Origin: Christensenellales bacterium
GTDB taxonomy: Bacteria; Bacillota; Clostridia; Christensenellales; SZUA-584
Assembly: GCA_040768905.1 (NCBI GenBank)
Contig: JAXGMA010000001.1
Coordinates: forward strand, 1,299,806-1,363,805
Reading direction: 5' to 3'
DNA length: 64,000 nucleotides
Part shown: in pieces, positions 13,573 through 39,417 of the stretch
Numbering within the stretch: the first letter of the stretch is position 1
How the letters are laid out: every line of letters begins with the position of its first letter
Made by a program: the position numbers and the translations under genes
Notes under the pieces: generated by a model
Database searches by the model: none
Told to the model about the DNA's origin: nothing
The model's input: only the letters and a program-made list of their open reading frames with translations

Positions 13573-14556
13573 TTATAAATCCAGCTGAGAGAGCGTGGCC
13601 GGCATTTCATGTTTGGTGTTGACCTTGTCAGGGCCGGTCACCAGATCAAAACAGGAAATAACCAGCATCCCCCGCCATACGCACGGCTCGCCGGGTTGGT
13701 CGAGTTCTCCGTTGAATCCGTCTGAATCGGGGCTCTGCGCAATACGTGTTACTTCCCCGTTTGGATTGACTTTTGCTATCGCATTGGCTGAAAAATCAGC
13801 GATATACAAATTGCCGTCTTCGTCAAACATCATGCCGTCGGTGGTTTGAAGTTCTTTTGGATTCTTTGCCCACACTTTGTTTTCCCGCACGCTTCCGTCT
13901 TCATTGAACGTGATCTTATGCACCGCTCCGTCACCGAAGTTGCCGACATAGAGATTGCCGTCCCTGTCAAATGCGATGCCGTCCGCACCGTACTGGCACT
14001 CCGTGTTTTGTGTGATGAATGTTGTTAAGATATTTGTGTCATCGAGCGTATTGTCGATCTGTATATTTTCATCGTCCAGACGGAATTTGTACACACAGCT
14101 GACCAGCAGTCCGGAAGGGTCTTTGACTTTCGACATCAGGCTCTGCGTTACATATAAATGATCCCCGAGTATGCGCACGCCGTTTGGATGCTCCATGCCG
14201 TCAGCGATGACCGTCGTTTTGACCACTTTATTGTCTTTGATTTTTATGCGCAGCATGCGCCCCTTGTAAAGCAGCTCCTCCGCGCCTGACCATCCCTGGT
14301 TGTCACATATATAAATGTCCCCGTCCTCACCAATGGCTATGCCCATCGGCCTTGAGACTCCGGTTTGCGGGTGAACAGGCACGTCGACCCATTTGGTGAT
14401 ATTTTTTTCCTTATCTATCCGCACAAGGCAGCCGGACATCTTCACATCCGCAAAATTCGGGCAGGAAAGTATTAGATCCCCGTCCTTGTCCACGGCCATA
14501 CCGTCCGGAGTGCAAATGTAATCCGGCAATAATGCGAAAAGTTTTGGTTCCTGCAT
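13573..14556 (-). CDS. SMP-30/gluconolactonase/LRE-like beta-propeller protein (putative lactonase)
   Basis: 327 aa with repeated blade motifs (PDGMAVDKDGDL, GIAIGEDGDIYI, NGVRI, ADGIAFDRDGNLYV, TDGMMFDEDGNLYI) typical of six-bladed lactonases. RBS AGGAGA. Confidence 0.65.
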   Translation of the reverse strand: MQEPKLFALLPDYICTPDGMAVDKDGDLILSCPNFADVKMSGCLVRIDKEKNITKWVDVPVHPQTGVSRPMGIAIGEDGDIYICDNQGWSGAEELLYKGRMLRIKIKDNKVVKTTVIADGMEHPNGVRILGDHLYVTQSLMSKVKDPSGLLVSCVYKFRLDDENIQIDNTLDDTNILTTFITQNTECQYGADGIAFDRDGNLYVGNFGDGAVHKITFNEDGSVRENKVWAKNPKELQTTDGMMFDEDGNLYIADFSANAIAKVNPNGEVTRIAQSPDSDGFNGELDQPGEPCVWRGMLVISCFDLVTGPDKVNTKHEMPATLSQLDL

Positions 14557-14575
14557 TTTTCATTCTCCTTTTATT

Positions 14576-16093
14576 CTAAATTTTTGCCAATTCGCTGTAG
14601 ACCTCTTCCAGCGCGGTGTATGCCTTTTCAAAGACGGCTTTGAGCTTAGCATATTTCTCAGTGTTTTCGCTTTTCGGCGCAACGGTCTTGACTGCATAGT
14701 TGAATCTTTCAGCTTCATGGAACCCTGAAAGCTCTCCGATGGCAACACCGGCAGTGATGGCGGCCCCCATCGAAGTGGCTTCCTCAAGGCTTTTCATCTT
14801 CAGAATGTTCATGCCGAATACGTCCGCAAGTATCTGCCTTTGTATGCTCCCCTTAGCCATTCCTCCGATCACGAGCATTTCCGAAATTGCGATATCTTTT
14901 TTGAGAATACTGAGTATGATATCAAGGTTCATGGCGATGCCCTCGATCACGCTTCTGAGCAAGTCGCTGCGTTTGTGCTCCATCTTGAGGCCGATAAAAG
15001 CACCGCGCGCATCCGGGTTCCATCTTGGGCTTCTCTCCCCCAGCAGATACGGCAAAAACAGAAGCGCGTTCGAGCCCGCTTCCGCCTTCTCAATTTCCAT
15101 GTTGATGAACTCATACGGGCTTTTACCCTCTTCTTTTGCTCTTTGCTGCTCATATTTACAGATCTCATTCTTCACCCAGTTGAACGCAGCGCCTGCTGTC
15201 TGCATCGTTCCGCACGGCGCCACATAGCCAGGCACTATATGCGCCCAGTTGAATGTACGCATCTTTGCATCAAATACCGGTTCTTTGCTTGTTGTGCATA
15301 TCCATGATGAAGACCCAAGACAGCTGTAGGTTTTTCCTTCCGACACAGACCCGGCACCCACCGATGCGCACATACCGTCGCCGCCGCCGACAACGACTTT
15401 GGTACCCGGCGCAAGCCCGCATTCCTGTGCGATGACGGGCTGTACTTCGCCGGCAATGTATGTCGACTCTACCGCTTTTGGCATTTTGTCCCCGTCAACA
15501 CCTGCGGCATCCAATATTTTTTCAGACCATGCAAATCTATTTAAATCAAAGGCATTTGTGCTTGAAGCGTCTGAATAATCCGTTAAAAACTTTCCGGTCA
15601 GTTTATACACGATATAGTCTTTCGCATTGAGCATCTTATATGTGTTTTTATAAACTTGCGGCTCATTGTCTTTTATCCACATCAGTTTTTCGATACCGTA
15701 TGAACAGCTGATCCTGTGCCCGACTGTCTTGTAGAAATCCCAAGGATCGATTTTTTCTTTAATATGATTCTCTTGCTTTGTTGATCTCATGTCTGCCCAT
15801 ATGATCGATGGGTACAAAGGCTTTCCGTTTTTATCAACGCACAAACAACCCATCATCTGGCCGGAAAAAGATACAGCCAGCACATCTTTTTTTTCAATGC
15901 CGCTTAAAAGCTGCTTTGTGCTTAAACAGATGGCCTTCCACCAGTCGTCAGGGTTCTGCTCAGCCCAGTTCGCGTTGTAGTACCGGGTATCATAAGAGCT
16001 GGTGACGCTGCCGATAAGCTCTCCTTCCACCGAAAAAAGCGTGGCTTTGTTTCCTGAAGTTCCAACATCATGGGCCAGCAGATACTTTTTCAT
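14576..16093 (-). CDS. FGGY-family carbohydrate kinase (xylulokinase-like)
   Basis: 505 aa with N-terminal HDVGTSGNKA and GGGDGMCA, and the C-terminal GGMAKG motif of FGGY kinases. Confidence 0.85.
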   Translation of the reverse strand: MKKYLLAHDVGTSGNKATLFSVEGELIGSVTSSYDTRYYNANWAEQNPDDWWKAICLSTKQLLSGIEKKDVLAVSFSGQMMGCLCVDKNGKPLYPSIIWADMRSTKQENHIKEKIDPWDFYKTVGHRISCSYGIEKLMWIKDNEPQVYKNTYKMLNAKDYIVYKLTGKFLTDYSDASSTNAFDLNRFAWSEKILDAAGVDGDKMPKAVESTYIAGEVQPVIAQECGLAPGTKVVVGGGDGMCASVGAGSVSEGKTYSCLGSSSWICTTSKEPVFDAKMRTFNWAHIVPGYVAPCGTMQTAGAAFNWVKNEICKYEQQRAKEEGKSPYEFINMEIEKAEAGSNALLFLPYLLGERSPRWNPDARGAFIGLKMEHKRSDLLRSVIEGIAMNLDIILSILKKDIAISEMLVIGGMAKGSIQRQILADVFGMNILKMKSLEEATSMGAAITAGVAIGELSGFHEAERFNYAVKTVAPKSENTEKYAKLKAVFEKAYTALEEVYSELAKI

Positions 16094-16142
16094 TTTTTAC
16101 TCTCCTTAAAAGCAAAGTGACTTTTTATTGATAAAGTTTGGG

Positions 16143-17189
16143 CTAATATTTGATCACGATCTTTTTACACGGTTCTTTTCTTGCGATGATATCAAAAGCG
16201 TCCTTGATGTCCTTGAATTCTATCACATGCGAAATAAAATCTCTTGGTTTTAACAGCCCAAGCTCGATCCAGTTCATGATTTGGCTGTGTGCAGCAGCCT
16301 CTTGCGCTTTATCCGGAAATTGCTGGAATTTTAAATTCCAGTTGTACGGCGCTTTGCTCCAATCGAGTTTCATGGACAGATCGGGAGAAATCCCGTAAGT
16401 GCAGATCGCCCCTCCGTCTTTGATAAGACGCATGCCTTCTTTGATGAGCGCATTCATACCGACGGCATCCAGCGAAAAATCTACCCCGTCTTTGCAGATG
16501 CCGCGCACGATTTCATAAGGATCGGCCATTCTGCTGTTGTATGCATAATCTGCCCCGGCTTTTTTTGCTTCTTCGATCTTTTCATCCATGATGTCGAAGA
16601 CGATGATGGGCGCCAGCCCCAATATTTTTGCAAATCTCACAAAAGAAAGCCCGACCGGCCCTGCGCCGAAAACAACAAGGCTCTTGTTCGCGGCAAACCC
16701 AAACTTCTTCGTCGCCGCAAGCACCTCCCTGAATGTGATGATCACGACTGCTTCTAAAGGGTCAATGTCTTTTGGAAGCTTTGTCTGTGTGTAATAAAAC
16801 TCGCCGAAACCGTCAGCCCCCGGCCCCTGGCCGTTGTTCGCCATGGCCTTCCAGTCGCCGCAAATCGCATACTCTGAAAATGCGCCCCAATATGATGCGT
16901 ATCCGTCCAAATTGCCTTCAACAAACGGAAGCATGACGATATCGCCGATTTGGAAGCTGGTCACGTTTTTCCCGACCTCCACGACCTGTCCTATCCCCTC
17001 GTGCCCCAAAAGGCAGGGGTAGTCTGAGGCTGGTATGTTTTTGAATTCACCGTGCAATATTTTGGTGTCGGTCCCATTGCATACGCCGCAAGCCAGCGTT
17101 TTCACCAATACTTTGTTTTCTGAGCATCGGGGGGTAGCCAACTCCACGATCTCAAGCTTTAAATCCTTTGTTACTGCCAAGCTTTTCAT
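16143..17189 (-). CDS. zinc-dependent alcohol/polyol dehydrogenase (MDR family)
   Basis: 348 aa with CGVCNGTD and GHEGIG zinc motifs and the GAGPVG Rossmann motif. Confidence 0.85.
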   Translation of the reverse strand: MKSLAVTKDLKLEIVELATPRCSENKVLVKTLACGVCNGTDTKILHGEFKNIPASDYPCLLGHEGIGQVVEVGKNVTSFQIGDIVMLPFVEGNLDGYASYWGAFSEYAICGDWKAMANNGQGPGADGFGEFYYTQTKLPKDIDPLEAVVIITFREVLAATKKFGFAANKSLVVFGAGPVGLSFVRFAKILGLAPIIVFDIMDEKIEEAKKAGADYAYNSRMADPYEIVRGICKDGVDFSLDAVGMNALIKEGMRLIKDGGAICTYGISPDLSMKLDWSKAPYNWNLKFQQFPDKAQEAAAHSQIMNWIELGLLKPRDFISHVIEFKDIKDAFDIIARKEPCKKIVIKY

Positions 17190-17370
17190 TTGTTACTCTC
17201 TCCCTGCGATTGAATAATAATAGCCTGTCCGGCTTTTTTAACTGTGTTCTCTTTAATGACCAGTGTACCATGAATGTGCGCCTGAAAACTAACTTTTTTT
17301 AAAAATAAAACTCTTATTGATCAAACAATATTGGCATGATCGAAAGAGTTGTTGATAAGTCAGAAATGCT

Positions 17371-17402
17371 CAGCAGGCCCGGATAAAAATCCGGACCTGC
17401 TG
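17371..17402 (-). terminator. hairpin between the thiolase and Zn-ADH genes (possible weak terminator or RNA-processing site)
   Basis: CAGCAGGCCCGG / CCGGACCTGCTG is an inverted repeat (11 of 12 bp) with an 8-nt loop. The minus-strand tail is only weakly U-rich. Confidence 0.4.
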
Positions 17403-17426
17403 ATTGATCTCTATTTTTCTTTTGTT

Positions 17427-18689
17427 CTACTTGCCGACCACATACACATAGTTGGTGGTGGCTGAGCCGCCGATGTTGAGCATCAGGCCGTTTTTGGCGT
17501 CCTTCACCTGATAATCTCCGGCTTTTCCGGCAACCTGCTTATAGAGGTCAAGCATCATCCGAACACCGCTGCCGCCGACAGGATGCCCGCAGCCGATAAG
17601 CCCGCCGCTCGGGTTGATGGGCTTGTCTCCCGTCAGTTCGGTGCGTCCGGCCTCGATCGCCTCGTACTCTTTGCCAGGCTCCGTGATACCGAAAGCGGAA
17701 ACAGCCGCATATTCGCTTGAAGTAAAGCAGTCATGCGTTTCAAAGAAATCCATGTCTTCGACGCCCATCCCTGCTCTCGCATATGCTTCCTCGACCGCTT
17801 TGCGCGTCCACGGCAGCACATACTTTTCATCCTTGGCTTCCTCGACCTTTTTGGCATAGGTGATCGGCGCAACCCTGTGCCCCCATCCTTTGATGTACGG
17901 CAAATCGCTTAAGCTAAGGCCGTTCTTCTTTGCATATTCTTTGGCATACGCTTCCGTGGCAAGGAACAGCACAGCTGCACCGTCCGTCACCTGCGAGCAG
18001 TCGGAAATGGCCAGCAGCCCGCCGACCTGTGCATTGTTGGCCGTTCCTCTGTCGTTGGCCTGCGCTTCGTCCATAAACCAGTTTCTTGCCTGCGCTTTCG
18101 GGTTTTTCTTGGCGTTTGAATAGTTCTTCGTGGAAATTTTTGCAAGCGCGCGCATGAACCTTTCCTTGTCCGGCTTGTATTTTTCAAGGATGGTGTCAGC
18201 CAGCTTGCCGAAAAGCTTCGGGAACGGGAAATCCACGCCCTTTGCTTCCTGCTCGTAGTTGGCGGCTCTTCCTAAGTAATCGCCGCAGACCTTTGCATTG
18301 ACCGTCTTCATCATTTCAAAACCGAGCACCATCGCCACGTCGTAATCACCGGCGCGCAGTTTGGCAAACGCCGCGTCGATAGCGACAGAACCTGAAGCAC
18401 AAGCCGACTCATACCGTGCGCTCGGCACGCCGTAAAACGCCGGGCTGACCTCTGTCAAAAACGCGCCCCAGTGGCTCTGGTCACAATAATATTCACCCAC
18501 AAAGTTGCCGATGCACGCAACGATGCGGTTTTGCTTGTTAAGTTCAATCACATCCTGCTCCGTCATGCCTACAGAAGAAAGGCCGTCTTCAACGGCTTCT
18601 TTGAGCATAGCCAAAAAGTTTTTGCCTTCTTTTGTCCAGTTCCTGCTATAATCAGTCTGGTCGCCTCCCAGTATATATACCTTCTCCAT
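17427..18689 (-). CDS. thiolase-family acetyl-CoA C-acyltransferase (SCP-x/archaeal-like type)
   Basis: 420 aa. Active-site-like CASGS in the N-terminal half and [10 protein letters not shown] near the C-terminus. RBS AGGAGA. Confidence 0.75.
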
Positions 18690-18703: not shown

Positions 18704-20020
18704 CTACAGATTCGCCCGGAATGATTTGCGGTAATCAAACGGCGGTGTGATCGCTTTTTTGTTCTCTTCGCGGATACCGCTCAGCTGTTTTGCAAGTATG
18801 CCCGACTCATCCACCTGCTTTGCGAGTTTGAGCACTTCTTCAAAACCGCCGAGTGCCTGCATCAGCGCGACCGGCCCCACCCAGTTGAACCCTGTCGTCA
18901 TGGCGATGTCTGCGTCCGTCACTTTTTTGGATACCTGCTCTGCCGTCACGATGCCGTATGTCACATAGCTGACAAGGAAGTACTTGCACAGCATGGCTTC
19001 TTTAGAAGTATCGGCTTTGAGCGCACCTATGGCCTCTGCATAGCGCCCGGCTTTTAAGTTATCCACCATGGCTTTGGCGAACGCATGCGTATATTTTTTG
19101 GCCGGCCGCAGCTGGCCCGATGCGATATCATACACCAGATACTGCTTTGAGCCGTCTTGTGCTTTTTCCATCTTGAACAGGCCGTCTTTGGCTTTGCGTC
19201 CGAGCTTGCCCTGCGCTATGAGTGTTTCCACAAATTCAGGCAGAACAAAGGCTTCGTTGTCGTAGTCGTTTGATTTGGCGTGAATATTATCTACGATGGC
19301 TTTATGCACATCCAGGCCGACAAAATCCACAGTGACCAGCGGCGTCATGCCCCGGCCGGTAAAAGGCCCGATGATCGAATCAATATAATCAATGCCGCCT
19401 TCTGCCTTGTATTTGACTGCATACTGCAGCGCCTTGTTCAAGAAATGGAAACCAATGCGGTTGCCGAGGAATGCAGGCGTATCCGTGGTCTCGATGACAT
19501 CCCTGATCAGCACATCTTGAAGGTAGGCTCTCATCGCGTCAAACAGCGCCGCATCCGTATACTTTGAGCGTATCACTTCGCACAGCGTGAGGCTATACGG
19601 CGGGTTGAAAAAGTGGGTGCCGAAATAACGGCTCTTTAAGCTGTCGCCGAAATTTTCAACAAGCTCATTGATCGAAAACCCGGATGTGCCCGTCGTCACA
19701 ATAAGCTCCGGCTTGGCACAATCAGCTATCCTTTTGTATATCTGCGATTTGATGCCGGTGTCTTCCGCAACGCTCTCAAACACCCAGTCAGACTGCGCCA
19801 CACAGTCTTCAAAATCATCATATGTCTTTGGGATCAGCCTTGCGCGCACCGAATCCGCCTTGACCGAGTTCGCAGCCACATCAACGGCCTGCTGCGCCGC
19901 TTCCATCTTGCGGCAGATCAAAAACACTTTGGCGTTTCCGAAAGCCGCAACCAGCCCGGCCACCGTCGCGCCCATCGTTCCGTTTGCTCCCACAACCGAA
20001 ACTGTCTTAATGTTCAGCAT
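18704..20020 (-). CDS. 3-hydroxyacyl-CoA dehydrogenase (long form)
   Basis: N-terminal [11 protein letters not shown] Rossmann motif, a HFFNPP motif and a C-terminal HADH dimerisation domain. The ATG at 20020 is preceded by AGGAGG; the ORF-track start at 20110 overlaps the crotonase gene. Confidence 0.85.
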
Positions 20021-20778: not shown

Positions 20779-20779
20779 C

Positions 20780-26495: not shown

Positions 26496-26566
26496 TTTTC
26501 TACCCTCCATATGGTTTAGCCGCTTGGCACTGATACTGTCAAACGTGCTTTTATTTTAGATAGCGA

Positions 26567-28798: not shown

Positions 28799-28821
28799 TT
28801 TTTTGTCCTCCTTCTTCTTTT

Positions 28822-29100
28822 TCATCCTCCGGCAATGGGAGGCAGTATTTTTAAAACCGTATCGTTTTTTATCATGGAGTCGGGCTTTACGATCGCGTTA
28901 TCCACAACGAAGATCGCGTTTAAGATAGATCCGCGTATCAGTTGAGCGCCCCTGAGCTTTTCTTCAAGCCCCTCTTCGCTCTCAAGCAGCAAGCCGGCCG
29001 CTTCTGCAACTGTAACCGCGTCCTTATCGCAATGTAATTCGACCTCTCTTTTTCCGACGATATCGCTGAGCATCGCGCCTAATATAACCTTGATCTGCAT
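28822..29100 (-). CDS. MoaD/ThiS-family beta-grasp protein with C-terminal Gly-Gly
   Basis: 92 aa ending ...ILPPIAGG. Size and the diglycine terminus are typical of sulfur-carrier proteins. Lies immediately upstream of AOR copy 1. Confidence 0.7.
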   Translation of the reverse strand: MQIKVILGAMLSDIVGKREVELHCDKDAVTVAEAAGLLLESEEGLEEKLRGAQLIRGSILNAIFVVDNAIVKPDSMIKNDTVLKILPPIAGG

Positions 29101-31884: not shown

Positions 31885-34230
31885 TTACAAACCTTTCTCA
31901 AATCTTTTTATGATGTTATCCTGCTGCACGGGAGCCATCGCTATAAAGTAAGCGGAAAGCCCCCCCATTCTCACTCTTAAATCCTGATGCTTCTCCGGAT
32001 TGACTTTGGCATCCTTTAGATCTTCCGCATTGGTGCTGGTGATCGTCAGGATCTGCCCGCCGAGATTACAGAAAGATTTTATAAGATTTTTGAGCCTGTC
32101 AAGCCCGGCTTCATCTGCATAATCATTGGAGTTCTCGGCAATATCGACAGGCGTTCCGCAGTAATACTTGATCAAAGAAGGCTTGCTGATGGTCTTGAAT
32201 ATCGCGGTTGCCCCGTTCACATCTGCGCCTGCTACCGGCGAATAGTTGGGTGCGAGCGGTCCGCCGAACTCACGTCCGTCTGCCGATGCGCCGATATCAC
32301 GGCCAAGCACAGCATAATTTTCAAATGTGCCGATCCCGACAGGGAACATCATGACATTTTGCTTCCTGCGCCAGATCTCGACACGGTCTTCAAAATCTTT
32401 AAGCAGCCGAACCGCTAAATCATCCACGTAGTCATCATCATTCCCGAATTTGGGAACCATGTTTTTGGCCATTGCGCGCAGGCGCTCATGCCCTTTCCAG
32501 CCGTCTTTGAGGGCCTGTACAATCTCTGACATCTTGACCTTTTTTTCTTCAAAGACCAGCTTTTTGATCACAGCCAGAGAATCGACCGTATTGGCAAGGC
32601 CGGTCACAAGGATCAGATGGAAGATGTATTTGGCGCCGTCTTGCGAAATATCCCTGCCTTTTTCGATGCAGTTGTCGATCATTGTTGAGAACAACGGGTC
32701 CGGCGCGATCATAAACGACAAACCGAAATTTTCGAGCCTGCGTTTGCACTGAAAATCGATCGCTTCGAACATTTGCTTCTTATAGGCGGCATAGAACATC
32801 TCAAAATTGTCAAACTCACAAGGATCGCCCGTGTCAAGCCCTTCACGCACGTTGTTGTTGAGCGATACGCCCCTGTGGAGCACCCATTCCAGACAGCGCA
32901 GGTTCATCACATGCGCATAGCTGAAATGGCTCTTTCCGGCAACAAGCGTCTCCCAGCAGCCATCATTGCTGTAATCACGCGCGTCCTCGACCGGTATGCC
33001 GATATCCACGAAACCCGGAATGATGGTGTCGTCATTATATATCATCGGTTCGCCCTGGCCGTACCTTAACGCATTGGCGATGGTTTTATAGAATGCATCA
33101 GGGGTATCCTTATGGACCCTTGCTGCCAGCGTCGGCATAAGCAGCGACATTTCGTGCATCAGATCGATAAAGAGGTAAGAAACCTCGTTCGTCGCATCTT
33201 TTCCGTCTCTACCGAGACCGCCGACGATACAGTTCATCAGCCAGTCATTGCCCGACTGCCCGTAGTTAAAGTTGGCTTCGCTGTCATCGGGTTCGTTTTC
33301 CTGCCATGTGAGCCCTCTTTGCTCAAAGCCGCCTGTGATCGTCTTTGCAAGGGCTTCGTCGGGCACGAGCCCCTGGGAAAATAAACCGAAGCTGTAGTGG
33401 TTCTCAGCCTGTTTGGTATCGATGATGATGCGCTCGTTGCATTTGATGAGAAAACTGCCGATAAGATCAAGCGCACGCTCTTTCGTGATGCGTTTTTCAT
33501 CAAGGTCTTTTTTGTAATAAGGATAAATATACTGGTCTGCCCTGCCGAGAGGTACATATTCGCCGCCGCTGTTGACCATACAGTAAATAAACCAGAAGGA
33601 TTGCAGCGCTTCATGCAGGGTACGGGCAGGCTTTTGCGGCACATGAGAACATGCCTCATAAATCTCCAGCAATTCCCTCTTGCGAATGACATCTTCACAG
33701 GCAAGAGACTGTTTGAGTGCTTCCTGTGCATGCCTTTTTGCAAAATCCACAACGCCGTCAAGCGCAATGATCATCGCCCGGTATTCAATAAGCGCCGCTT
33801 CATCCGGATGGGATGCGCGCATCTGGCGTTCTATCGCCGCGCCTATCTCCTGTTTTAATCCATCGATGCCGATCTCGATGACCTTATCGTACTGCGGCGG
33901 ATGGTGCCCCCATATCGAGGCTTCGTTCAGCTGGTACTTCGCCGCTTCTTCGCCCTCTTCTTTGGTATAATAAATGGGCATCACCGTTCCCCAGCCGACG
34001 CTGTTCTGGTTGGGGTTGCCGACAATAAGCTCATCCGGTTTGATGATCGCCGGCAGGTGATTTCCGATATAGGCCTGCGCCATCGCCTTGCGCACAACAA
34101 GCGGTTCGCTTACAAGATGCTCGTTTCCGTCGAGAATATTGGTATCGACAAAATGCCACACGCCTTTGTCTTTATATTCGACGTTGAACAACCTATCTTT
34201 TAATTTTTCAAGCCTGCTTGTCAGTTCCAT
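31885..34230 (-). CDS. glycyl radical enzyme, PFL2/dehydratase-like but divergent
   Basis: 781 aa. DELIVGN N-terminal motif, Cys-loop NDGCWE (GCxE type), FGNDDDYVD, GASADGR, and C-terminal radical-domain motif RVRMGGLSAYF in place of the usual RVAGYSAxF. RBS AAGGAGG. Confidence 0.9.
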   Translation of the reverse strand: MELTSRLEKLKDRLFNVEYKDKGVWHFVDTNILDGNEHLVSEPLVVRKAMAQAYIGNHLPAIIKPDELIVGNPNQNSVGWGTVMPIYYTKEEGEEAAKYQLNEASIWGHHPPQYDKVIEIGIDGLKQEIGAAIERQMRASHPDEAALIEYRAMIIALDGVVDFAKRHAQEALKQSLACEDVIRKRELLEIYEACSHVPQKPARTLHEALQSFWFIYCMVNSGGEYVPLGRADQYIYPYYKKDLDEKRITKERALDLIGSFLIKCNERIIIDTKQAENHYSFGLFSQGLVPDEALAKTITGGFEQRGLTWQENEPDDSEANFNYGQSGNDWLMNCIVGGLGRDGKDATNEVSYLFIDLMHEMSLLMPTLAARVHKDTPDAFYKTIANALRYGQGEPMIYNDDTIIPGFVDIGIPVEDARDYSNDGCWETLVAGKSHFSYAHVMNLRCLEWVLHRGVSLNNNVREGLDTGDPCEFDNFEMFYAAYKKQMFEAIDFQCKRRLENFGLSFMIAPDPLFSTMIDNCIEKGRDISQDGAKYIFHLILVTGLANTVDSLAVIKKLVFEEKKVKMSEIVQALKDGWKGHERLRAMAKNMVPKFGNDDDYVDDLAVRLLKDFEDRVEIWRRKQNVMMFPVGIGTFENYAVLGRDIGASADGREFGGPLAPNYSPVAGADVNGATAIFKTISKPSLIKYYCGTPVDIAENSNDYADEAGLDRLKNLIKSFCNLGGQILTITSTNAEDLKDAKVNPEKHQDLRVRMGGLSAYFIAMAPVQQDNIIKRFEKGL

Positions 34231-34251: not shown

Positions 34252-35232
34252 TCATTTTATAATGATGTTTCTTGAGCTCCTGTCTGCCGTGATAAAGATC
34301 GCGATCAGCAGCAGCAATCCGAAAACGATCTGCTGATAAAATGAATCGAGCCCGACAGCTGAGATGCCATTCTGGATGATCGCCACAACCGCGCAGCCGA
34401 CCGTCATCCAGAGCGCGTTGCCTCTGCCGCCTGACAGCGATACACCGCCCAATACAGCTGCGGCAATGCACATCAGGGTGAGCGGGTCTCCGACGTACGG
34501 CGAAGCGCTTTTAAGTTTTGCGACCAATAGAATGCCCATCATACTGCTCAAAAACGCGCTCACCACATAGGCGAACATTTTTGTCTTGCGGATCGGGACA
34601 CCCGCCATGCGCGCCGCTTTTTCATTTGCGCCGATAGCATATATGTATTTCCCGAGGCTCGTTTTTTTCAGCAGGATATAGGCGATTATAACGACCGCTA
34701 CACCGATGAGGAAGTAAACAGTGAATATATCGATGACCGTGATCTTGGTAAAATCAAAGATTTCCCCTTGTGCACGCGGCACCGATACGGATCCGGAACC
34801 GGAAACGACAAGCGCAAGGCTGTTCCATATGCTCATGGTCCCGAGTGTCGCGATAAACGAGGGTATCTTCACAAACGTAAACAAAAATCCGTTTAACAGC
34901 CCCGCCAGTATGCCGAACAGCAATGGCAGCAGGATGCCGCCTGCGCCGCCTAAAGCTCCGAGCAGCGTGGCGCACAGCACTGCAGAGAACGAGCAGACGC
35001 CGCCCAAAGATAAGTCAATGGAGCCGATAATCAAAACAAACGTGATGCCTGCGCCCATAACCAGAAAAGTCGTCATGTCGGTGAGCAGGTTCTTGATGTT
35101 GAGCGGCCGCAAAAAATTCGGATTGATCGAAGTGATCACAACGACAAGCACCACGATGACAAGCAAGCTGATGTATCTTGTGATGTTGGCTCCGCTCGTG
35201 TTGATTTTTAATCTGTTCATTAAAGGTTTCAT
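34252..35232 (-). CDS. ABC sugar transporter permease (RbsC/CUT2 type)
   Basis: 326 aa, multi-pass hydrophobic protein with the branched-chain/ribose-type permease pattern (GSIDLSLGG). Confidence 0.85.
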   Translation of the reverse strand: MKPLMNRLKINTSGANITRYISLLVIVVLVVVITSINPNFLRPLNIKNLLTDMTTFLVMGAGITFVLIIGSIDLSLGGVCSFSAVLCATLLGALGGAGGILLPLLFGILAGLLNGFLFTFVKIPSFIATLGTMSIWNSLALVVSGSGSVSVPRAQGEIFDFTKITVIDIFTVYFLIGVAVVIIAYILLKKTSLGKYIYAIGANEKAARMAGVPIRKTKMFAYVVSAFLSSMMGILLVAKLKSASPYVGDPLTLMCIAAAVLGGVSLSGGRGNALWMTVGCAVVAIIQNGISAVGLDSFYQQIVFGLLLLIAIFITADRSSRNIIIK

Positions 35233-35244: not shown

Positions 35245-36771
35245 CTACATCATCAATTTAACGATATCGACTTGTTCGGGCTTGTTTTCGCGCCCCGCTT
35301 CAAACTCTCCGGTAATAAGGCCGTCTTTCATGGTCAGTACCCGGTTTCCAATCCCGATGCATTCGGCCAATGTGTCTCCCAAAAGTATGACCGCAAGGCC
35401 TGTTTTTGTGGCTTCTCTGATGATCGAATATATTTCTTCCTTCGCGCCGACATCAACGCCTCTTGTGGGGTGGTTGAGTATCAACACCTTGGCTTCAGAA
35501 GCCAGAACTCTCGAAAAAACGACCTTCTGCGCATTGCCGCCGCTCAGTGACTCGACAAGCTCTTGCTCACTGCTGCATTTGATATTTAATTTGCCGATCC
35601 ACTCCTTGGACTTTTTGAGCTGCTTGCCTTTTGAGATGAAAAGGCCGGAGCTGACGTTCTTGTAATTGGAAAGGCAGATGTTTTCGTAAACAGGCAGGAT
35701 GCCGAGTATACCTTCTTCCCGCCGTTCCTTGGGTATAGAAAGTATGCCTTTTCTCAATGCCGCGGACGGCTCTGCGTTGGATATTTTTTTGCCGAAAAGC
35801 TCGATGACGCCCGAGGTTGCTTTATCGTCACCTGCGATGACTTCGCAGACCTCCTCTTTGCCGGAACCCACAACGCCCGCGATACTGATGACTTCGCCCT
35901 CATGCAGGTCAAAGCTCACATCACGGAAAGCGCCCTTTTTACTCAAGTTTTTCAAACTGAGCACCACATTGTCTTTGGGGTCAGTCTGTTTGTCGATCTT
36001 GTAGTATTCGCCTGTTCCGCTCCTGCCGACCATCAGCTCGTAGATCTTATCTTCGTTGGCCTCTGATGTCTTGATTTCACCGACGTTTTGTCCGTCCTTG
36101 AAGACATAAATACGATCCGTAATCTCAAGAACCTCGTCAAGACGGTGCGAGACAAAGATGACGGCATTGCCCTCTTCTTTAAGTTTTTTCATCTCGGTAT
36201 ACAACTGCTTTATTTCTGCGTCGCCGAGCACAGATGTCGGCTCGTCAAGCAATATGATCGCCCTGTCTGATTTTGAGCTTCTTGCCGTGTTGAGCACCTT
36301 GGCGATCTCCACCATCTGCCTTTTTGCAAAAGTCAGCTCTCCCGCTTTCTTTTCCGGCGGGATGTCCTCGTTATCGATTTCTTTTAATATGTCGGCGGCC
36401 GCTGTGTACATTTTGCGCCAGTTGATAAAGCCGAATGTCTTAAACTCCTTTTCCTTGCCGAAGAAGATATTCTGGCCGACTGTCAGATTGGAAACGATAG
36501 ATTGTTCCTGAAAAACCATGCCTACGCCCAGCGCATTGGCTTCCCGCGGGTTCCGCGGCGCATACTTTTTGCCGCGTATCAGCATTTCGCCTTTATCAGC
36601 GCGTTCCACACCGTTGATGATCCTGAACAGCGTCGTCTTGCCGGCGCCGTTCTCGCCGACCAACCCAAGGATCTCGCCTTCATATATGTTGAGGTTAACG
36701 CTCTTTAACGCCTGCACCCCCGGATATGTTTTGTTTATGTCTTTAGCTTCAAATAACAGCTTCTTTTCCAT
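35245..36771 (-). CDS. ABC sugar transporter ATP-binding protein (duplicated ATPase, RbsA type)
   Basis: 508 aa with Walker A GENGAGKTT, LSGGNAQK signature-like motifs and two nucleotide-binding halves. Confidence 0.9.
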   Translation of the reverse strand: MEKKLLFEAKDINKTYPGVQALKSVNLNIYEGEILGLVGENGAGKTTLFRIINGVERADKGEMLIRGKKYAPRNPREANALGVGMVFQEQSIVSNLTVGQNIFFGKEKEFKTFGFINWRKMYTAAADILKEIDNEDIPPEKKAGELTFAKRQMVEIAKVLNTARSSKSDRAIILLDEPTSVLGDAEIKQLYTEMKKLKEEGNAVIFVSHRLDEVLEITDRIYVFKDGQNVGEIKTSEANEDKIYELMVGRSGTGEYYKIDKQTDPKDNVVLSLKNLSKKGAFRDVSFDLHEGEVISIAGVVGSGKEEVCEVIAGDDKATSGVIELFGKKISNAEPSAALRKGILSIPKERREEGILGILPVYENICLSNYKNVSSGLFISKGKQLKKSKEWIGKLNIKCSSEQELVESLSGGNAQKVVFSRVLASEAKVLILNHPTRGVDVGAKEEIYSIIREATKTGLAVILLGDTLAECIGIGNRVLTMKDGLITGEFEAGRENKPEQVDIVKLMM

Positions 36772-36801
36772 AAATACACCGCTCCTTTGTTTCTGGGTTG
36801 A

Positions 36802-37818
36802 TTATTTGTTGACAAGTTTACGGCCTCTGGTCACCGAAACCGCGACAGCGGCCAGTATGATGGCTCCCTGTATTCCCGTTTGTATCGTGGCATCGACGCC
36901 TGACATGATAAGGCCGTTTTGCAGCACGGTGACGATGGCAGCGCCCAACAGCGTATTGACCACGCCGCCTTTGCCGCCGCTCAGCGCAGTGCCGCCGACA
37001 ACGACCGCAGTCAAAGCCGGAAACAGCTGGTTTTGCCCGGAGAGTATCGTTCCCCTCCCTAATTTGCCCGCACTGAGAACGCCCGCAACACCGACGCACA
37101 GCCCGGCCAGCACAAATGATATGATCTTGACCTTGTCGATGCTGATGCCGGAGACTTTGGGTATCGTCTCGTTATCGCCGATAGAATAGATATACCTGCC
37201 GTAAGCCGTGTAGCGCTGTATGACGAACATGATGAGGAAAACAACTATGCCGACCAAAAACGTATACGGTACCATGCCGGCGATGTCTCCGTTCACGAGC
37301 GTCTTTAAGAAATCATATTGAAGGAATGCGGGTATGCCCTGATAGGAGAGCATCCCGGCGCCGGCCGCCACGCTTGACATCGCCAGGGTGACCATGAAAG
37401 AAGGCAGCTTGGCTTTGACGTGTATATAACCGTTTATAAAGCCGATCGCGCCGCAGCACAGTACAGAAAGAATCAGGCCGAAAATCCCTAGGTCAAGGGG
37501 GAACTTATCGCTGATTACAAAGATGCTGATGATAGAAGCGGAAAACCCCATCACGCCCTCAAGTGAAAGGTCAATACTGCCCATGATGACGACAAATGTC
37601 AAACCGAGAGAGAGAATTAGCGGTATCGCCAGTTGGTTGAGTAATGCCCTTATGTTCATGGGCGCCAAAAAGGATGGCTGTGCGATCATAAAGACCACGA
37701 TGAGCAAAAAGAGAATGATGACCGGTGCGATCCTGATAATCTTCGCCTTGGTGTTCTGCGCTTTGACCTGTTGCGCGAACTCTTCACCCACGGTAAGCTT
37801 TTTATTGTTTTCTGCCAT
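36802..37818 (-). CDS. ABC sugar transporter permease (RbsC/CUT2 type)
   Basis: 338 aa hydrophobic protein with GSIDLSLEG. Second permease of the same system. Confidence 0.85.
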   Translation of the reverse strand: MAENNKKLTVGEEFAQQVKAQNTKAKIIRIAPVIILFLLIVVFMIAQPSFLAPMNIRALLNQLAIPLILSLGLTFVVIMGSIDLSLEGVMGFSASIISIFVISDKFPLDLGIFGLILSVLCCGAIGFINGYIHVKAKLPSFMVTLAMSSVAAGAGMLSYQGIPAFLQYDFLKTLVNGDIAGMVPYTFLVGIVVFLIMFVIQRYTAYGRYIYSIGDNETIPKVSGISIDKVKIISFVLAGLCVGVAGVLSAGKLGRGTILSGQNQLFPALTAVVVGGTALSGGKGGVVNTLLGAAIVTVLQNGLIMSGVDATIQTGIQGAIILAAVAVSVTRGRKLVNK

Positions 37819-37994
37819 AGTGTTTCCTCCCGGTTAATGATATAAGTTAAATAACACCGACAACTATATAGACCATTCCAATTATATCATACGCCCCGAG
37901 ATGTTACGCCTCGAGGCGTTAGTTTTCAAGCTTTTTATAAGTACAGTCCTCTATTTTTTTAGGGGCATTTTTTATGATAATGCCTGATTTTTAT

Positions 37995-38020
37995 GAAGGG
38001 AAGCGCAAGCGCTTCCCTTC
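37995..38020 (-). other. perfect 12-bp hairpin just downstream of the binding-protein gene (RNA stabiliser or partial terminator)
   Basis: GAAGGGAAGCGC-AA-GCGCTTCCCTTC is a perfect inverted repeat with no strong U-tract. An extended -10-like TGATATAAT follows on the minus strand before the permease gene. Confidence 0.5.
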
Positions 38021-38035
38021 ACATTTTCTAAAGTA

Positions 38036-39196
38036 TTAGTCTTGGATCAACGGGATATCCCACGGTGCATAGATCATGCTGGAAATGTCCGTGAAGTCGA
38101 ACGACGGCGTGCTAGCTAAGAATTCGTCAACTGTGTCAGCCGTAACAAGAACACCGGATGTCAGGAAGCTTCTCTGATCAAGCGGAAGCTCTGAAGGCAC
38201 GATGTTTCCTGCCCATGCCTGATACAGGTATGCGAGGCCCATGCCGCCCTGTTTGTAAGGATCGCTGAACACTGACGCTGTCATCTTTCCGGCTTTGATA
38301 GCCTGAACAGCGCCGTCGATGCCGTCAACGCCAACGACCTTGATCTTGCCGATGAGGTCTTTTGCCTCAAGCAGCTCTACGACCGAGAGAGCCATACTGT
38401 CATTCGCGCACCAGATGCCGTCGATATCGCTGTACTTCGCCAGCCATGTCTCAGCAATTGTGTAAGCCTGCTGCGGATCCCAGTCAGCCGGCAGATCTTC
38501 GAGCAGCTCTACGCCCGGATATTCCGCCAAAGCTTTCTTCAAGCCTTCGAAACGGTTGATCGCCGCGCTGTTGGCAAGCATGCCCTGGATCGCAAGGACC
38601 TTGCCTTCGCCCGGTGTGTCGAAACTCTCAAACATGGCTTTTGAGATGTTGTAACCGGAGCCGTTGTCATCGAGAGTCTGGTGGAACACATAGTATTCGT
38701 AGTCTTTGATCTTGAGCTCATCAGCTGTGCTCCATGTTGTGCTCCAATATACCTTATTTTCTTCGCAGTATTCCGCGATCGGGACAGCATTCGGAGCATT
38801 GTTAGGATCAACAGTGACTATGCAGTTCGGTGCATAAGACGCGATAAAGTCTCTAACAACCGTCAGCTGCTTTTCATCGCTTCCATCGCTGACCAACATG
38901 ACAACTTCACAGTCTTGTCCCTGACTCTTGAGCCAATCTGCAAACATCTGGCCGCCTTCCTGCAGCTGGATGTAATACGGATTTGTCAAAGATCTGATCG
39001 CCATGCCGAGGTAGAGTTTTTCTCCCGCAGCGGGTGCTGGTGCATCAGGCTCTTGAGCATCAGGCTCTTGAGCAGCCGGCTTTTCAACAGCAGGGGCCTC
39101 CGTGTCAGGTGTTTGGGTTTGCGGCTGGCAACCTGCCATCACGATGCTCAGCGCGAAAACCAGAGCGAGAATCATTACTACTGCTTTTTTCAACAT
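38036..39196 (-). CDS. ABC sugar/polyol-binding lipoprotein (periplasmic-binding-protein type I)
   Basis: Signal peptide plus lipobox (LSIVMAGC), a Pro/Glu/Ala-rich linker, then a PBP-type fold. The ATG at 39196 has AGGAGG 5 nt upstream. Confidence 0.85.
   Translation of the reverse strand: MLKKAVVMILALVFALSIVMAGCQPQTQTPDTEAPAVEKPAAQEPDAQEPDAPAPAAGEKLYLGMAIRSLTNPYYIQLQEGGQMFADWLKSQGQDCEVVMLVSDGSDEKQLTVVRDFIASYAPNCIVTVDPNNAPNAVPIAEYCEENKVYWSTTWSTADELKIKDYEYYVFHQTLDDNGSGYNISKAMFESFDTPGEGKVLAIQGMLANSAAINRFEGLKKALAEYPGVELLEDLPADWDPQQAYTIAETWLAKYSDIDGIWCANDSMALSVVELLEAKDLIGKIKVVGVDGIDGAVQAIKAGKMTASVFSDPYKQGGMGLAYLYQAWAGNIVPSELPLDQRSFLTSGVLVTADTVDEFLASTPSFDFTDISSMIYAPWDIPLIQD
39042..39071. repeat. 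perfect 15-bp tandem duplication inside the lipoprotein linker
   Basis: GCATCAGGCTCTTGA occurs twice in tandem. It encodes the repeated AQEPD motif of the linker. Confidence 0.9.
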
Positions 39197-39388
39197 ACTT
39201 TCCTCCTTGTTTATTATCACCGAAGGGCTGGGTATATAATAATACTGCGCACCTTCAGAATGAAAAACGGTTATTGATAGCGATTATTTTCTGTTTGCTT
39301 TGTTTCCCCTTAAGACAGTTTTGAAATAACTGGTGCGTTCTGTCACATAATGGTATTCTATCATATTTCTTTGTACTTTATATGCGTT

Positions 39389-39417
39389 ATTGTATACAAT
39401 CATTGGCTGCAAGTCAA
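39389..39417 (-). promoter_or_regulatory. promoter of the ABC/GRE cluster (TTGACT-17 nt-TACAAT) overlapped by the palindrome ATTGTATACAAT
   Basis: On the minus strand, TTGACT is at 39417-39412 and TACAAT at 39394-39389. The perfect 12-bp palindrome at 39389-39400 covers the -10 element. Confidence 0.5.

Follow-up and report, generated by a model that had tools for sequence, protein, structure and literature searches.

A glycyl radical enzyme, a variant split transketolase and 4-hydroxybutyrate enzymes in a conserved regulon of a Christensenellales bacterium: a possible route for sugar alcohol catabolism

Twenty-two co-directional open reading frames (ORFs) in DNA of a Christensenellales bacterium (GenBank assembly GCA_040768905.1, contig JAXGMA010000001.1, positions 1,299,806 to 1,363,805; the whole 64,000-nucleotide stretch is called the window) bring together an ABC importer, a glycyl radical enzyme (GRE) with its activase, a tungsten-type aldehyde:ferredoxin oxidoreductase (AOR), a split transketolase and the enzymes of 4-hydroxybutyrate metabolism. 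We propose, with a probability of roughly 0.5, that these genes serve as a single catabolic regulon. Its substrate would be a neutral sugar alcohol or sugar, most likely a hexitol with D-manno or D-gluco configuration, whose carbon would feed the transketolase and the 4-hydroxybutyryl-CoA dehydratase (AbfD) route. The parts of this proposal differ in strength. We regard it as very likely that the genes are a single conserved regulon, that its GRE is of the dehydratase type and that an aldehyde is oxidised in one of its steps. We think it probable that the transketolase donor is 2-deoxy-5-keto-gluconate (DKG) or a close analogue, whose C4 product would feed an iron-dependent alcohol dehydrogenase (Fe-ADH), the CoA-transferase AbfT and AbfD. 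That the GRE substrate is a hexitol giving a 2-deoxyhexose is put forward tentatively. The genes on which the argument turns are listed here in transcription order, in window coordinates.

38036-39220, minus strand: CUT2-type solute-binding lipoprotein (Peripla_BP_4 at 4.7e-42)
36802-37818, minus strand: permease 1 of the ABC importer (BPD_transp_2)
35245-36771, minus strand: double-domain ATPase of the ABC importer (two ABC_tran domains)
34252-35232, minus strand: permease 2 of the ABC importer (BPD_transp_2)
31885-34230, minus strand: GRE, 781 amino acids (aa; PFL-like and Gly_radical domains)
30954-31882, minus strand: GRE activase, a radical SAM protein with two ferredoxin-like clusters (TIGR02494 at 254 bits)
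30191-30889, minus strand: GntR/FCD regulator (Pfam domains)
29112-30134, minus strand: zinc alcohol dehydrogenase 1 (Zn-ADH1), a polyol/secondary-alcohol dehydrogenase with threonine, sorbitol and idonate 5-dehydrogenase relatives
28822-29100, minus strand: MoaD/ThiS-like protein (ThiS fold, C-terminal Gly-Gly as in MoaD)
26954-28825, minus strand: AOR (AFOR_N 1e-81, AFOR_C 2e-134)
26567-26929, minus strand: small Cupin_2 protein (Pfam)
25374-26510, minus strand: Fe-ADH of the 4-hydroxybutyrate dehydrogenase type, a relative of C. viride Hbd2
23909-25354, minus strand: AbfD, 4-hydroxybutyryl-CoA dehydratase (HpaB fold; 761 bits to 1U8V)
22599-23903, minus strand: AbfT-type CoA-transferase (AcetylCoA_hydro type; 510 bits to 3GK7)
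21754-22602, minus strand: N half of the split transketolase, TKN (variant 'GSDPG..NGGTHM' subfamily)
20780-21739, minus strand: C half of the split transketolase, TKC (variant 'GSDPG..NGGTHM' subfamily)
20050-20778, minus strand: crotonase (Pfam/NCBIfam)
18704-20020, minus strand: long FadB-like 3-hydroxyacyl-CoA dehydrogenase (HADH, 3HCDH; Pfam/NCBIfam)
17427-18689, minus strand: thiolase of the PRK06289/Thiolase_C_1 type (570 bits, above cut-off)

Domains were called by Pfam and NCBIfam profile searches of the window proteins. The calls bear out the gene content and place given by an earlier reading of the DNA from its letters and ORFs (the sequence-only reading); its 'about 23' minus-strand genes number 22 in the ORF listing, in an unbroken run from 39220 down to 13573. 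Most junctions measure -4 to 64 nt, in keeping with the short gaps and overlaps it described, a description that does not hold for the gaps of 217 nt between the solute-binding protein and the permease and of 237 nt between the thiolase and a second zinc alcohol dehydrogenase (Zn-ADH2). No microcompartment shell gene is present, as was said before: all cluster ORFs fall in other families and the gaps are too small for one. The binding protein likely starts at 39196, where a MLKK...MAGC lipobox is followed by a Pro/Ala/Glu linker, and it is a lipoprotein of the Gram-positive type. The HADH start is probably 20020 and not 20110, giving 438 aa as called in a relative with 97% identity (L084; individual loci are given L numbers throughout).

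The neighbourhood recurs in other genomes. When one genome per species was scanned, 79 GRE loci were obtained, 52 of which have a GRE at least 53% identical to that of the window (53–79%); neighbours were counted by tblastn of every window protein and by clustering all locus ORFs of 45 family loci. TKN occurs in 31 of the 52 GRE loci, TKC in 28, Zn-ADH1 in 27 and the GntR gene in 22, with Fe-ADH and the upstream gene SDR1 in 13 each, the ABC importer in 9–14, the solute-binding protein in 9, the CoA-transferase and a GFO_IDH_MocA (GFO) gene in 7 each, AbfD in 6 and an HbpS-like gene in 3–4; AOR is found in 10 GRE loci. Locus L023 is a compact example, with the order ALDH-GRE-AE-FeADH-AbfD-CoAT-TKN-TKC-Hbd-ZnADH1-GntR (ALDH, aldehyde dehydrogenase; AE, activase; CoAT, CoA-transferase). 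The core genes are co-conserved across phyla beyond what a chance mosaic would give, and the co-conserved unit reaches upstream to SDR1 and the divergent HbpS-like/GFO pair. The sequence-only reading had asked whether the combination of GRE, AOR, abfD and split transketolase is conserved elsewhere; it is, which supports a single functional system. Co-conservation in the GRE loci does not extend to MoaD or to the types of thiolase and HADH present in the window, the latter two recurring only in L084, and phosphotransacetylase (Pta) is not co-conserved with the GRE in the 52 loci.

A shared operator points the same way. The perfect palindrome TTGTATACAA lies at 39390-39399, over the -10 box of the cluster promoter, with a 1-mismatch copy at 40378-40387 in the divergent promoter region between SDR1 and the HbpS-like/GFO pair and only one further 1-mismatch copy in 64 kb. 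Within the window alone the signal is weak (at least 3 matches in 9/100 shuffles). In 831 kb of GRE-family loci, 20 exact copies were found against 0.8–1.2 expected; 18 are intergenic, lying 30–200 nt upstream of TKN (5), GntR (4), ALDH (3), ZnADH1 (3), GRE (2) and FeADH (2). In a control of 914 kb from transketolase and inositol loci the 10-mer was not enriched: of its 4 copies there, 3 fall in a single locus of GRE type. Because TTGTATACAA is enriched upstream of these genes in GRE loci and not in the control, the GRE, aldehyde dehydrogenase, transketolase, Zn-ADH1 and Fe-ADH are one regulon in distant genomes. The GntR/FCD protein is probably the repressor that acts on this site.

Further genes and transcription signals mark the ends of the cluster and its upstream extension.

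39389-39417, minus strand: promoter-like site TTGACT-17-TACAAT (10/12 matches), upstream of the first gene
37994-38021, minus strand: stable hairpin 3' of the binding-protein gene (-30.4 kcal/mol, no U tract, z = -7.2)
17361-17413, minus strand: strong hairpin 3' of the thiolase gene (-34.7 kcal/mol, no U tract, z = -7.2)
17241-17214, minus strand: promoter-like site beyond the thiolase hairpin
16143-17189, minus strand: Zn-ADH2 (Pfam/NCBIfam)
14576-16093, minus strand: FGGY kinase (reaches the xylulokinase cut-off)
13573-14556, minus strand: NHL/SGL beta-propeller (domain call)
13475-13500, no strand assigned: bidirectional terminator-like hairpin at the end of the cluster (11-bp stem between A and T runs)
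39496-40266, minus strand: SDR1, upstream extension of the cluster
40481-40951, plus strand: HbpS-like gene, divergent from SDR1
40969-41994, plus strand: GFO_IDH_MocA gene, divergent from SDR1
43958-44953, minus strand: Pta (TIGR00651 at 345 bits, above cut-off)

SDR1 and the HbpS-like/GFO pair have facing promoter-like sites with 11/12 matches, and SDR1 falls narrowly below the butanediol-dehydrogenase cut-off (266 vs 270 bits). The hairpin at 17361-17413 is a possible partial terminator or processing site. Since Zn-ADH2, the FGGY kinase and the propeller lie behind this hairpin of -34.7 kcal/mol and have their own promoter-like site, this tail may be a separate unit, and its membership in the pathway is doubtful: none of the three has an orthologue in the 52 GRE loci, and all are kept only in L084. 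The sequence-only reading had counted them as part of the system, which their distribution and separate promoter-like site speak against, and its SMP-30 lactonase goes no further than the NHL/SGL propeller call.

The GRE resembles glycerol dehydratase in its catalytic residues but not in its pocket. No NCBIfam equivalog is reached (best 283–404 bits against cut-offs of 678–1100). Matches to solved GREs give 240–367 bits and ∼33% identity, with CutC, propanediol dehydratase (PD), glycerol dehydratase (GD) and HypD best; scores within its own clade are 1070–1494 bits. The protein has more than 1,500 relatives, the best about 78–79% identical and none with an informative name. They occur in Intestinibacillus, Agathobaculum, Butyricicoccus and Christensenella (gut butyrate producers), as well as in clostridia, enterococci, spirochaetes and planctomycetes. 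Carriers available in culture include Clostridium tyrobutyricum, C. algifaecis, C. pasteurianum, Enterococcus sp. MMGLQ5-1, Faecalicatena faecalis and Intestinibacillus massiliensis. For residue comparisons we aligned 25 family members with C. butyricum DhaB1 (dha operon, megaplasmid), whose numbering was checked against published residues. The superfamily motifs RVRMGG(757)LSAYF and GC(425)WE are invariant in all 25 members, which places the protein in the GRE superfamily. A CXE motif and a general-acid His are the criteria for C–O-cleaving GRE 1,2-eliminases (PMC13450708), and the family has both: C425-W-E427 and H109 stand for C433-V-E435 and H164 of glycerol dehydratase, and the equivalents of H164/C433/E435/G763 (H109/C425/E427/G757) are invariant in the 25 members. 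The glycerol contacts S282, Y339, D447 and Y640 are replaced by Y/F225, L331, Y438 and F629. The family also carries an insert of ∼50 residues (280–330) with many invariant Asn, Gln, Ser, Asp and Trp, and its pocket is probably larger and polar. Among the named GREs (PD, HypD, CutC, HpfG, HpsG, IslA, YbiW, PflD, HplG), no equivalog cut-off is reached, and the GD contact residues are not kept.

A June 2026 review of GREs covers six C–O eliminases, CutC, three C–S lyases and three isomerases, all with CXE; none of them has this genomic context, and the GRE described here is not covered there (PMC13450708). The sequence-only reading had said that a known activity unrelated to C4 or aldehyde chemistry would tell against it; with no equivalog, ∼33% identity and no entry in that review, none is known. 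From the residue pattern, in which the catalytic residues are of the dehydratase type and the pocket is not, we conclude that the GRE represents a new subfamily of eliminases, and we regard it as a putative alditol or sugar dehydratase. Genes for aldolases of the DeoC/LacD family flank the GRE in L046 (5794-15460) and in two loci of a sister clade with 42–46% identity (L051:8233-9713, L054:8309-8977), an arrangement that would fit a 2-deoxy-aldose as its product. ROK kinase genes adjoin the aldolase or GRE in L046 and L051, which hints at phosphorylation and aldol cleavage as a second fate of the 2-deoxy-sugar. Sister clades (38–46% identity) are likewise flanked by CUT2 importers, ALDH or AOR and sometimes transketolase. 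Two observations concern further GREs. A second member of the clade (P0114, 787 aa), 60% identical to the window GRE, is probably encoded in the same genome. Moreover, Clostridium tyrobutyricum, C. arbusti and C. algifaecis (L032-L034) share the order ALDH-(MFS)-GRE-AE-RpiB-PfkA-GRE2-AE2-MFS; their GRE2 is 32–33% identical to the first GRE and thus belongs to another family.

The sequence-only reading correctly placed an activase beside the GRE and overlooked a frameshift in it. The gene starts at ATG 31882, 2 nt after the GRE stop, and reads MEYNV...TIVFF before a T9 run (31801-31809) leads into an in-frame TAG. The radical-SAM motif CPLRCKWC sits in the -1 frame, so that CxxxCxxC is out of frame and the N-terminus is lost as assembled. 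The listed ORF (30954-31736) matches the activase profile from ∼45 only (TIGR02494 positions 44-293). One additional T restores 309 aa with CPLRCKWC and an end-to-end alignment with ten orthologues. The T9 run could be a homopolymer assembly error, an inactivating mutation or a slippage-controlled switch of GRE activation; a slippage site is possible because T TTT TTT is a classical -1 heptamer.

The best solved relative of the binding protein is 2RJO (188 bits), followed by allose, ribose and polyol binders. This similarity is not diagnostic of the ligand: the name of 2RJO is uninformative, and the polyol binders 4RS3 and 4RSM match weakly. An ABC importer lies directly upstream of the GRE in 10–14 of the 52 loci, SSS or MFS carriers take its place in others, and the Clostridium loci have an additional GlpF-like channel. 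All of these transporters (CUT2 ABC, SSS, MFS, GlpF-like) would fit a neutral substrate.

The step after the GRE is marked by an alternation of enzymes. Of the 45 clustered GRE-family loci, 22 have an NAD-type ALDH, an enzyme that the window does not encode; this ALDH or else an AOR adjoins the GRE and its activase. ALDH and AOR are nearly mutually exclusive, with both only in L021, and we read them as a non-orthologous displacement at the same step. This alternation fits the earlier proposal that AOR oxidises an aldehyde made by the GRE. The window AOR has both AFOR_N and AFOR_C, and tungstate transport or cofactor genes adjoin the AOR in L012, L013 and L015; the ALDH is generic, its best model being a lactaldehyde dehydrogenase below cut-off. 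Elsewhere in the window, a second minus-strand sugar cluster (49104-57803) has its own AOR (51681-53510), in the order GntR/UTRA regulator, 441-aa protein, GFO_IDH_MocA, Zn-ADH, AOR, cupin-type glucose-6-phosphate isomerase, 2-hydroxyacid dehydrogenase and KDPG/KHG aldolase. It looks like a non-phosphorylative Entner-Doudoroff-like route with the AOR acting on the aldehyde, and the source organism seems to use AORs where others have ALDHs.

The split transketolase departs from canonical enzymes at its acceptor side. TKN keeps the thiamine diphosphate/Mg motifs and the donor-binding His residues (E. coli H26, H66, H100, H261), and its GH(I)GG, SKGHA, SH, GDGE...DYN and NH motifs align with the C. 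hydrogenoformans and human enzymes. TKC has GSDPGVTAALNGGTHM in place of the canonical THAGLTVGEDGASHQ. With residues numbered as in the E. coli enzyme, Asp takes the place of His461, which binds phosphate, and Asn that of Asp469, which binds the acceptor C2-OH; Glu468 is replaced by L in the window (L/Y/F across the subfamily) and S385 by A in the window; the phosphate-binding Arg residues R358 and R520 are both kept. The canonical sugar-phosphate pocket (S385, H461, D469) is therefore not that of the window enzyme. All but one of 20 GRE-linked copies (19) and all but one of the 120 best database homologues (119) have the variant motif; this is a large, distinct subfamily with an altered phosphate/C2-OH pocket.

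Outside the GRE loci, a metagenome scan turned up this subfamily at 80 loci, and 44 of these span 9 kb or more. Seventeen of the 44 have an IolB-like gene, 9 IolD, 9 IolE and 15–16 a pair of type-II GAPDH and PGK-like genes; Fe-ADH occurs in 14, AbfD in 9 and the CoA-transferase in 7. The transketolase adjoins IolB/IolD/IolE/IolG in ten loci (L087, L092, L118, L122, L123, L137, L138, L149, L159, L168). For example, the order is GAPDH-PGK-TKN-TKC-IolB-IolD-IolE-IolG in L123, L137, L149 and L168, GntR-TKN-TKC-IolB-FeADH-AbfD-CoAT-IolD in L159, and IolD-IolG-IolE-GntR-TKN-TKC-IolB-FeADH-AbfD in L138. In L087 (a metagenome-assembled genome, MAG, of Acetivibrionales) and L092, it stands between type-II GAPDH and PGK-like genes and a malic enzyme; it is surrounded by IolG, IolE, IolD and an isomerase of the IolB family, and in L087 both IolE (437 bits) and IolD (984 bits) exceed their curated cut-offs. 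The trunk of transketolase and 4-hydroxybutyrate genes is a unit of its own: L091 (>20 contigs) has ZnADH-FeADH-AbfD-CoAT-TKN-TKC-Thl-Crt-Hbd, which is 51–78% identical to the central block of the window, and no GRE lies less than 9 kb away.

Because the isomerase that makes DKG is the immediate neighbour of the transketolase in iol clusters, the transketolase donor is probably DKG. By stereochemical reasoning, DKG has the ketol end and the D-threo configuration required of a transketolase donor. Its cleavage would leave 3-hydroxy-4-oxobutanoate, the carboxylate analogue of glyceraldehyde 3-phosphate. This product would explain the kept Arg residues in an altered phosphate pocket, the GAPDH-like/PGK-like/malic-enzyme alternative (with malate implied) and, as the other alternative, the carboxylate-binding Fe-ADH. 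The sequence-only reading had assigned the transketolase to a side branch for a ketose phosphate; the variant pocket, and a place elsewhere directly beside IolB and then Fe-ADH-AbfD-AbfT, argue against that role.

The inositol clusters deserve notice in their own right. In L087 (1-14044), L092 (408-11303), L123, L137, L149 and L168, IolC/IolJ give way, within the 9–10 kb seen, to the transketolase together with a type II GAPDH of the archaeal kind and a divergent PGK, often accompanied by a malic enzyme and a LarA-like protein. These genes suggest that malate semialdehyde would pass through malyl phosphate to malate, with ATP, and on to pyruvate. Inositol as a direct GRE substrate was rejected: ring opening needs IolD, and tblastn and Pfam searches found no IolD, IolE, IolC or IolJ in the window or any GRE-family locus. 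Large unassigned ORFs of related loci were likewise discarded as IolD candidates, as they mostly have no Pfam hit and are probably spurious antisense ORFs.

Two further genes accompany the transketolase. Zn-ADH1 usually follows it (TKN-TKC-ZnADH1) and also lies beside the variant transketolase without a GRE in L111, L154 and L169; we propose that it may make the ketol donor. Counterparts of the cupin near transketolase genes are distant (29–33%), in L007, L008, L027 and L043. An Acidobacteria MAG of the Korobacteraceae (L088:7778-10378) has a cupin domain fused N-terminally to TKN and a second small cupin after TKC, with a CUT2 importer and a GntR/FCD regulator nearby. The fusion ties the cupin functionally to this transketolase subfamily, and the Cupin_2 protein is a possible aldose-ketose isomerase.

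The 4-hydroxybutyrate enzymes are genuine by their diagnostic residues. AbfD matches 1U8V over its full length at 761 bits, with all [4Fe-4S] ligands (C99, C103, H292, C299) aligned, and the CoA-transferase has full-length similarity to solved AbfT enzymes (510 bits to 3GK7, 508 to 3EH7, 479 to 3D3U). The sole PDB match of the Fe-ADH below 1e-35 is C. viride Hbd2 (30SM, 330 bits), a C4-specific 4-hydroxybutyrate dehydrogenase. In Hbd2-type enzymes, D181, H185, H252 and H266 are metal ligands, Y256 is the base, and N270 and the carboxylate-binding R348 complete the set (PMC13495136). The window Fe-ADH keeps all seven, as do 13/13 GRE-linked orthologues, including those in loci without AbfD; in an unrelated Fe-ADH they are not conserved. 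The Fe-ADH is thus predicted to bind a C4 carboxylate, and since the residues are kept in all copies, a C4 omega-oxo or hydroxy acid would be a core intermediate of the regulon. AbfD and the CoA-transferase share 78% and 72% identity with their counterparts in L091, the block without a GRE. Canonical Hbd/Thl/Crt genes follow the transketolase in L010, L023, L025, L052, L091 and L169. The textbook route of the sequence-only reading accordingly holds for AbfD, AbfT and Fe-ADH and fails for the thiolase and HADH, which are not the textbook Thl and Hbd.

Taken together, we conjecture the following route. The importer at the head of the cluster would take up the substrate, and the activated GRE would convert the terminal vicinal diol of a hexitol to a 2-deoxy-aldehyde (2-deoxyhexose), extending glycerol-dehydratase chemistry to a larger polyol. 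The tungsten-type AOR would oxidise this aldehyde to a 2-deoxy-aldonic acid (2-deoxygluconate) with reduction of ferredoxin, a task that would fall to the NAD-dependent ALDH in most other genomes. Zn-ADH1 would then oxidise the penultimate carbinol to a terminal ketol, giving DKG or a close analogue. In this way, the importer, GRE, AOR and Zn-ADH1 would create a CH2-COOH end and a ketol end on an acyclic or pyranose C6 compound, as IolG/E/D/B do on inositol. In the trunk, the split transketolase would transfer the C2 ketol unit to glyceraldehyde 3-phosphate, forming xylulose 5-phosphate at no ATP cost and leaving the C4 omega-oxo-acid 3-hydroxy-4-oxobutanoate. Fe-ADH would reduce the latter to 3,4-dihydroxybutanoate, AbfT would form the CoA ester, and AbfD would dehydrate it to acetoacetyl-CoA or crotonyl-CoA. 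Thiolase would yield acetyl-CoA, with HADH and crotonase linking the reduced branch, and Pta would convert acetyl-CoA to acetyl phosphate and hence ATP. No kinase would be needed anywhere in the chain.

Several points weigh against this reading. The gene identities, catalytic residues, co-conservation, operator enrichment and other genomic settings of the transketolase are direct observations; the substrate is a deduction, and we likewise infer the order of steps, the exact C4 intermediate and the action of AbfD on 3,4-dihydroxybutyryl-CoA as opposed to 4-hydroxybutyryl-CoA. The weakest point is AbfD itself: at ∼70% identity to the canonical enzyme it favours 4-hydroxybutyryl-CoA, which the route would not supply without an extra deoxygenation. 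Should AbfD form acetoacetyl-CoA, the route could strictly do without crotonase and HADH, and the activase frameshift may leave the system inactive in this strain. The closest GRE homologue (78%, L001/L006) is accompanied by a PfkB kinase, an aldo-keto reductase and a GH3 gene, with no regulon neighbours. None of the 44 large metagenomic transketolase loci has a GRE, so that the link between head and trunk rests on 31 of the 52 GRE loci, and the absence of IolC and IolJ around the transketolase extends to 9 kb. Finally, locus ORF calling was crude, and many loci end at contig edges.

A broader version is still a tentative one, which we hold with less than even confidence. It sees a kinase-free radical route for hexitols across phyla, in which the GRE clade would form a 2-deoxy-aldose, and, in inositol catabolism, a widespread and so far undescribed branch independent of IolC/IolJ, the transketolase splitting DKG to xylulose 5-phosphate and malate semialdehyde in both. 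The C4 product would either be oxidised with ATP gain (type-II GAPDH-like and PGK-like proteins, malic enzyme) or reduced for AbfD, which would give acetoacetyl-CoA directly from 3,4-dihydroxybutyryl-CoA.

Other explanations of the cluster fare less well. An unlikely one, close to the sequence-only reading, starts from a tetritol or butane-polyol (erythritol, threitol, 1,2,4-butanetriol), which the GRE would dehydrate once or twice to 3,4-dihydroxybutanal and then to 4-hydroxybutanal or succinic semialdehyde. AOR and the alcohol dehydrogenases would deliver 4-hydroxybutyrate to AbfT/AbfD, and a polyol dehydrogenase with the transketolase would form a separate oxidative branch (erythrulose to glycolaldehyde and xylulose 5-phosphate), a two-branch logic as in glycerol fermentation. 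The canonical 4-hydroxybutyrate residues of AbfD, AbfT and Fe-ADH and the complete crotonase/HADH/thiolase set suit this scheme, as do the GlpF-like channel beside the regulon in Clostridium loci, the near miss of SDR1 to butanediol dehydrogenase and a narrowed, more hydrophobic acceptor pocket of the transketolase, apt for small unphosphorylated substrates. However, the same transketolase and FeADH-AbfD-CoAT genes stand by IolB in inositol clusters (L122, L138, L159), where there is no C4 polyol and the C4 compound comes from cleavage of a C6 keto-acid. Moreover, FeADH-TKN-TKC-ZnADH1 is one sub-operon, which fits consecutive steps better than two branches, one GRE would have to accept two different substrates, and no fate for glycolaldehyde is encoded. 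Given the iol contexts, the C4 acid most likely arises by transketolase cleavage of a C6 deoxy-keto-acid, and not from a butane-polyol as first suggested.

Less probable again is a ring-opening GRE of the isomerase type, like YbiW/PflD. It would abstract H at C6 of a hexopyranose or anhydro-sugar and cleave the ring C–O bond to a 5-deoxy-dialdose, which AOR would oxidise to 5-deoxyglucuronate; the cupin or an IolB-like isomerase would then make DKG for the same transketolase trunk. GRE isomerases share the CXE motif, an IolB-like 5-deoxyglucuronate isomerase gene lies directly upstream of the GRE in L008 (with IolB-like genes also in L052, L053 and L055), small cupins recur by the transketolase, one of them fused in L088, and the binding protein resembles aldose binders (allose, ribose). 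Yet Zn-ADH1, which such a route would not need, is the commonest neighbour after the transketolase (27/52), whereas IolB-like genes and cupins are rare. His109, the dehydratase general acid, is invariant, and YbiW/PflD score below the dehydratases against this GRE (246–272 vs ∼316–320 bits).

It is improbable, finally, that the locus is a decayed mosaic in which unrelated operons (importer and GRE; AOR; AbfD block; pentulose kinase unit) are co-directional by chance and the GRE is non-functional, since the co-conservation of the core across phyla and the shared operator linking the units contradict this for the core, the other ORFs are all intact with tight or overlapping junctions, assemblies commonly contain single-base errors in homopolymers, a -1 slip on T TTT TTT would restore the frame and, with a second GRE paralogue probably in the genome, another activase may be available; what speaks for a mosaic is the frameshift, two strong internal hairpins with internal promoter-like sites, tail genes, thiolase, long HADH and MoaD that are not co-conserved with the GRE, the distant cupin counterparts, the trunk without a GRE in L091 and the fact that the window GRE is missing from the protein collection, where the adjoining TKC is found at 100%. 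Such an explanation is possible for the tail unit and for activity in this strain.

The hexitol route proposed here borrows from several known systems. With the B12-independent glycerol and 1,2-propanediol dehydratases (C. butyricum DhaB1-DhaB2-DhaT), it shares the fold family, glycyl radical site, thiyl Cys, CXE Glu and general-acid His, the activase directly downstream, and an aldehyde taken over by a dehydrogenase encoded nearby, as the dha operon of L086 shows. Unlike them, the window GRE is ∼33% identical, misses every equivalog cut-off, has S282/Y339/D447/Y640 replaced and carries the ∼50-aa insert. The window also has a sugar-type importer in place of simple diffusion of a small diol, no microcompartment genes, and a product that would be oxidised and passed to transketolase and not merely reduced. 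In the myo-inositol route (IolG-IolE-IolD-IolB-IolC-IolJ-IolA), the IolB product DKG is the intermediate proposed for the window, and the window's transketolase subfamily, GntR and FeADH-AbfD-AbfT genes occur inside iol clusters. In contrast, the window is without IolD, IolE, IolC and IolJ; its CH2-COOH end would be made by GRE and AOR, not by IolE and IolD, and its keto-acid would be cleaved by transketolase without ATP, not by kinase and aldolase. The searchable literature gave no report of an inositol route with this transketolase.

The 4-aminobutyrate and succinate fermentation of C. aminobutyricum and C. kluyveri (AbfH/4HbD-AbfT-AbfD-crotonase-Hbd-Thl) has the same AbfD, AbfT and Fe-ADH residues and beta-oxidation-type genes. 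There the feed is an amino acid or succinate, whereas in the window it would be a sugar-derived C4 oxo-acid from the transketolase that may bear an extra 3-hydroxyl, and the window's thiolase and HADH are non-canonical. In the apulose-4-phosphate transketolase pathway of apiose catabolism, a dedicated split transketolase moves C2 units from an unusual ketose to glyceraldehyde 3-phosphate, as proposed here, and an Fe-ADH or similar enzyme deals with the aldehyde left over. The sulfoquinovose transketolase (sulfo-TK) route is alike by description, with C2 transfer from an unusual ketose to glyceraldehyde 3-phosphate by a split enzyme and the aldehyde left to an Fe-ADH or similar. The window enzyme would differ from both in its proposed deoxy-keto-acid donor, and its subfamily has the signature H461D/D469N with both Arg residues.

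Every enzyme family in the cluster is already known. The sequence-only reading knew of no described pathway with this gene combination, and likewise no description of the GRE/4-hydroxybutyryl-CoA dehydratase/transketolase system was found in the open-access literature, subscription journals not being covered. Judged by the accessible literature, the GRE subfamily, the transketolase subfamily and the reaction proposed for it, the channelling of sugar carbon into the AbfD route and the union of these in one regulon appear to be new.

The surroundings of the cluster hold two further items. A plus-strand block for aromatic amino-acid biosynthesis (9316-13267) converges on the cluster; it encodes chorismate synthase, chorismate mutase/prephenate dehydratase, a fused shikimate dehydrogenase-shikimate kinase (448 aa) and type II dehydroquinase. 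On the other side, a gene for the shell of a family 2A encapsulin (SrpI-like, 46716-47720) precedes one for a cysteine desulfurase with a ∼130-aa N-terminal extension (45245-46789), the usual cargo arrangement.

If the proposed route is correct, it would give a function to a large GRE clade of more than 1,500 relatives, and sugar alcohols would join the few known substrates of GREs. The route would also assign a role to a split-transketolase subfamily with thousands of members, annotated merely as 'transketolase', and provide an ATP-free entry of sugar carbon into the pentose phosphate pool. Through AbfD, dietary polyols and inositol would then be linked to the formation of butyrate and acetate.

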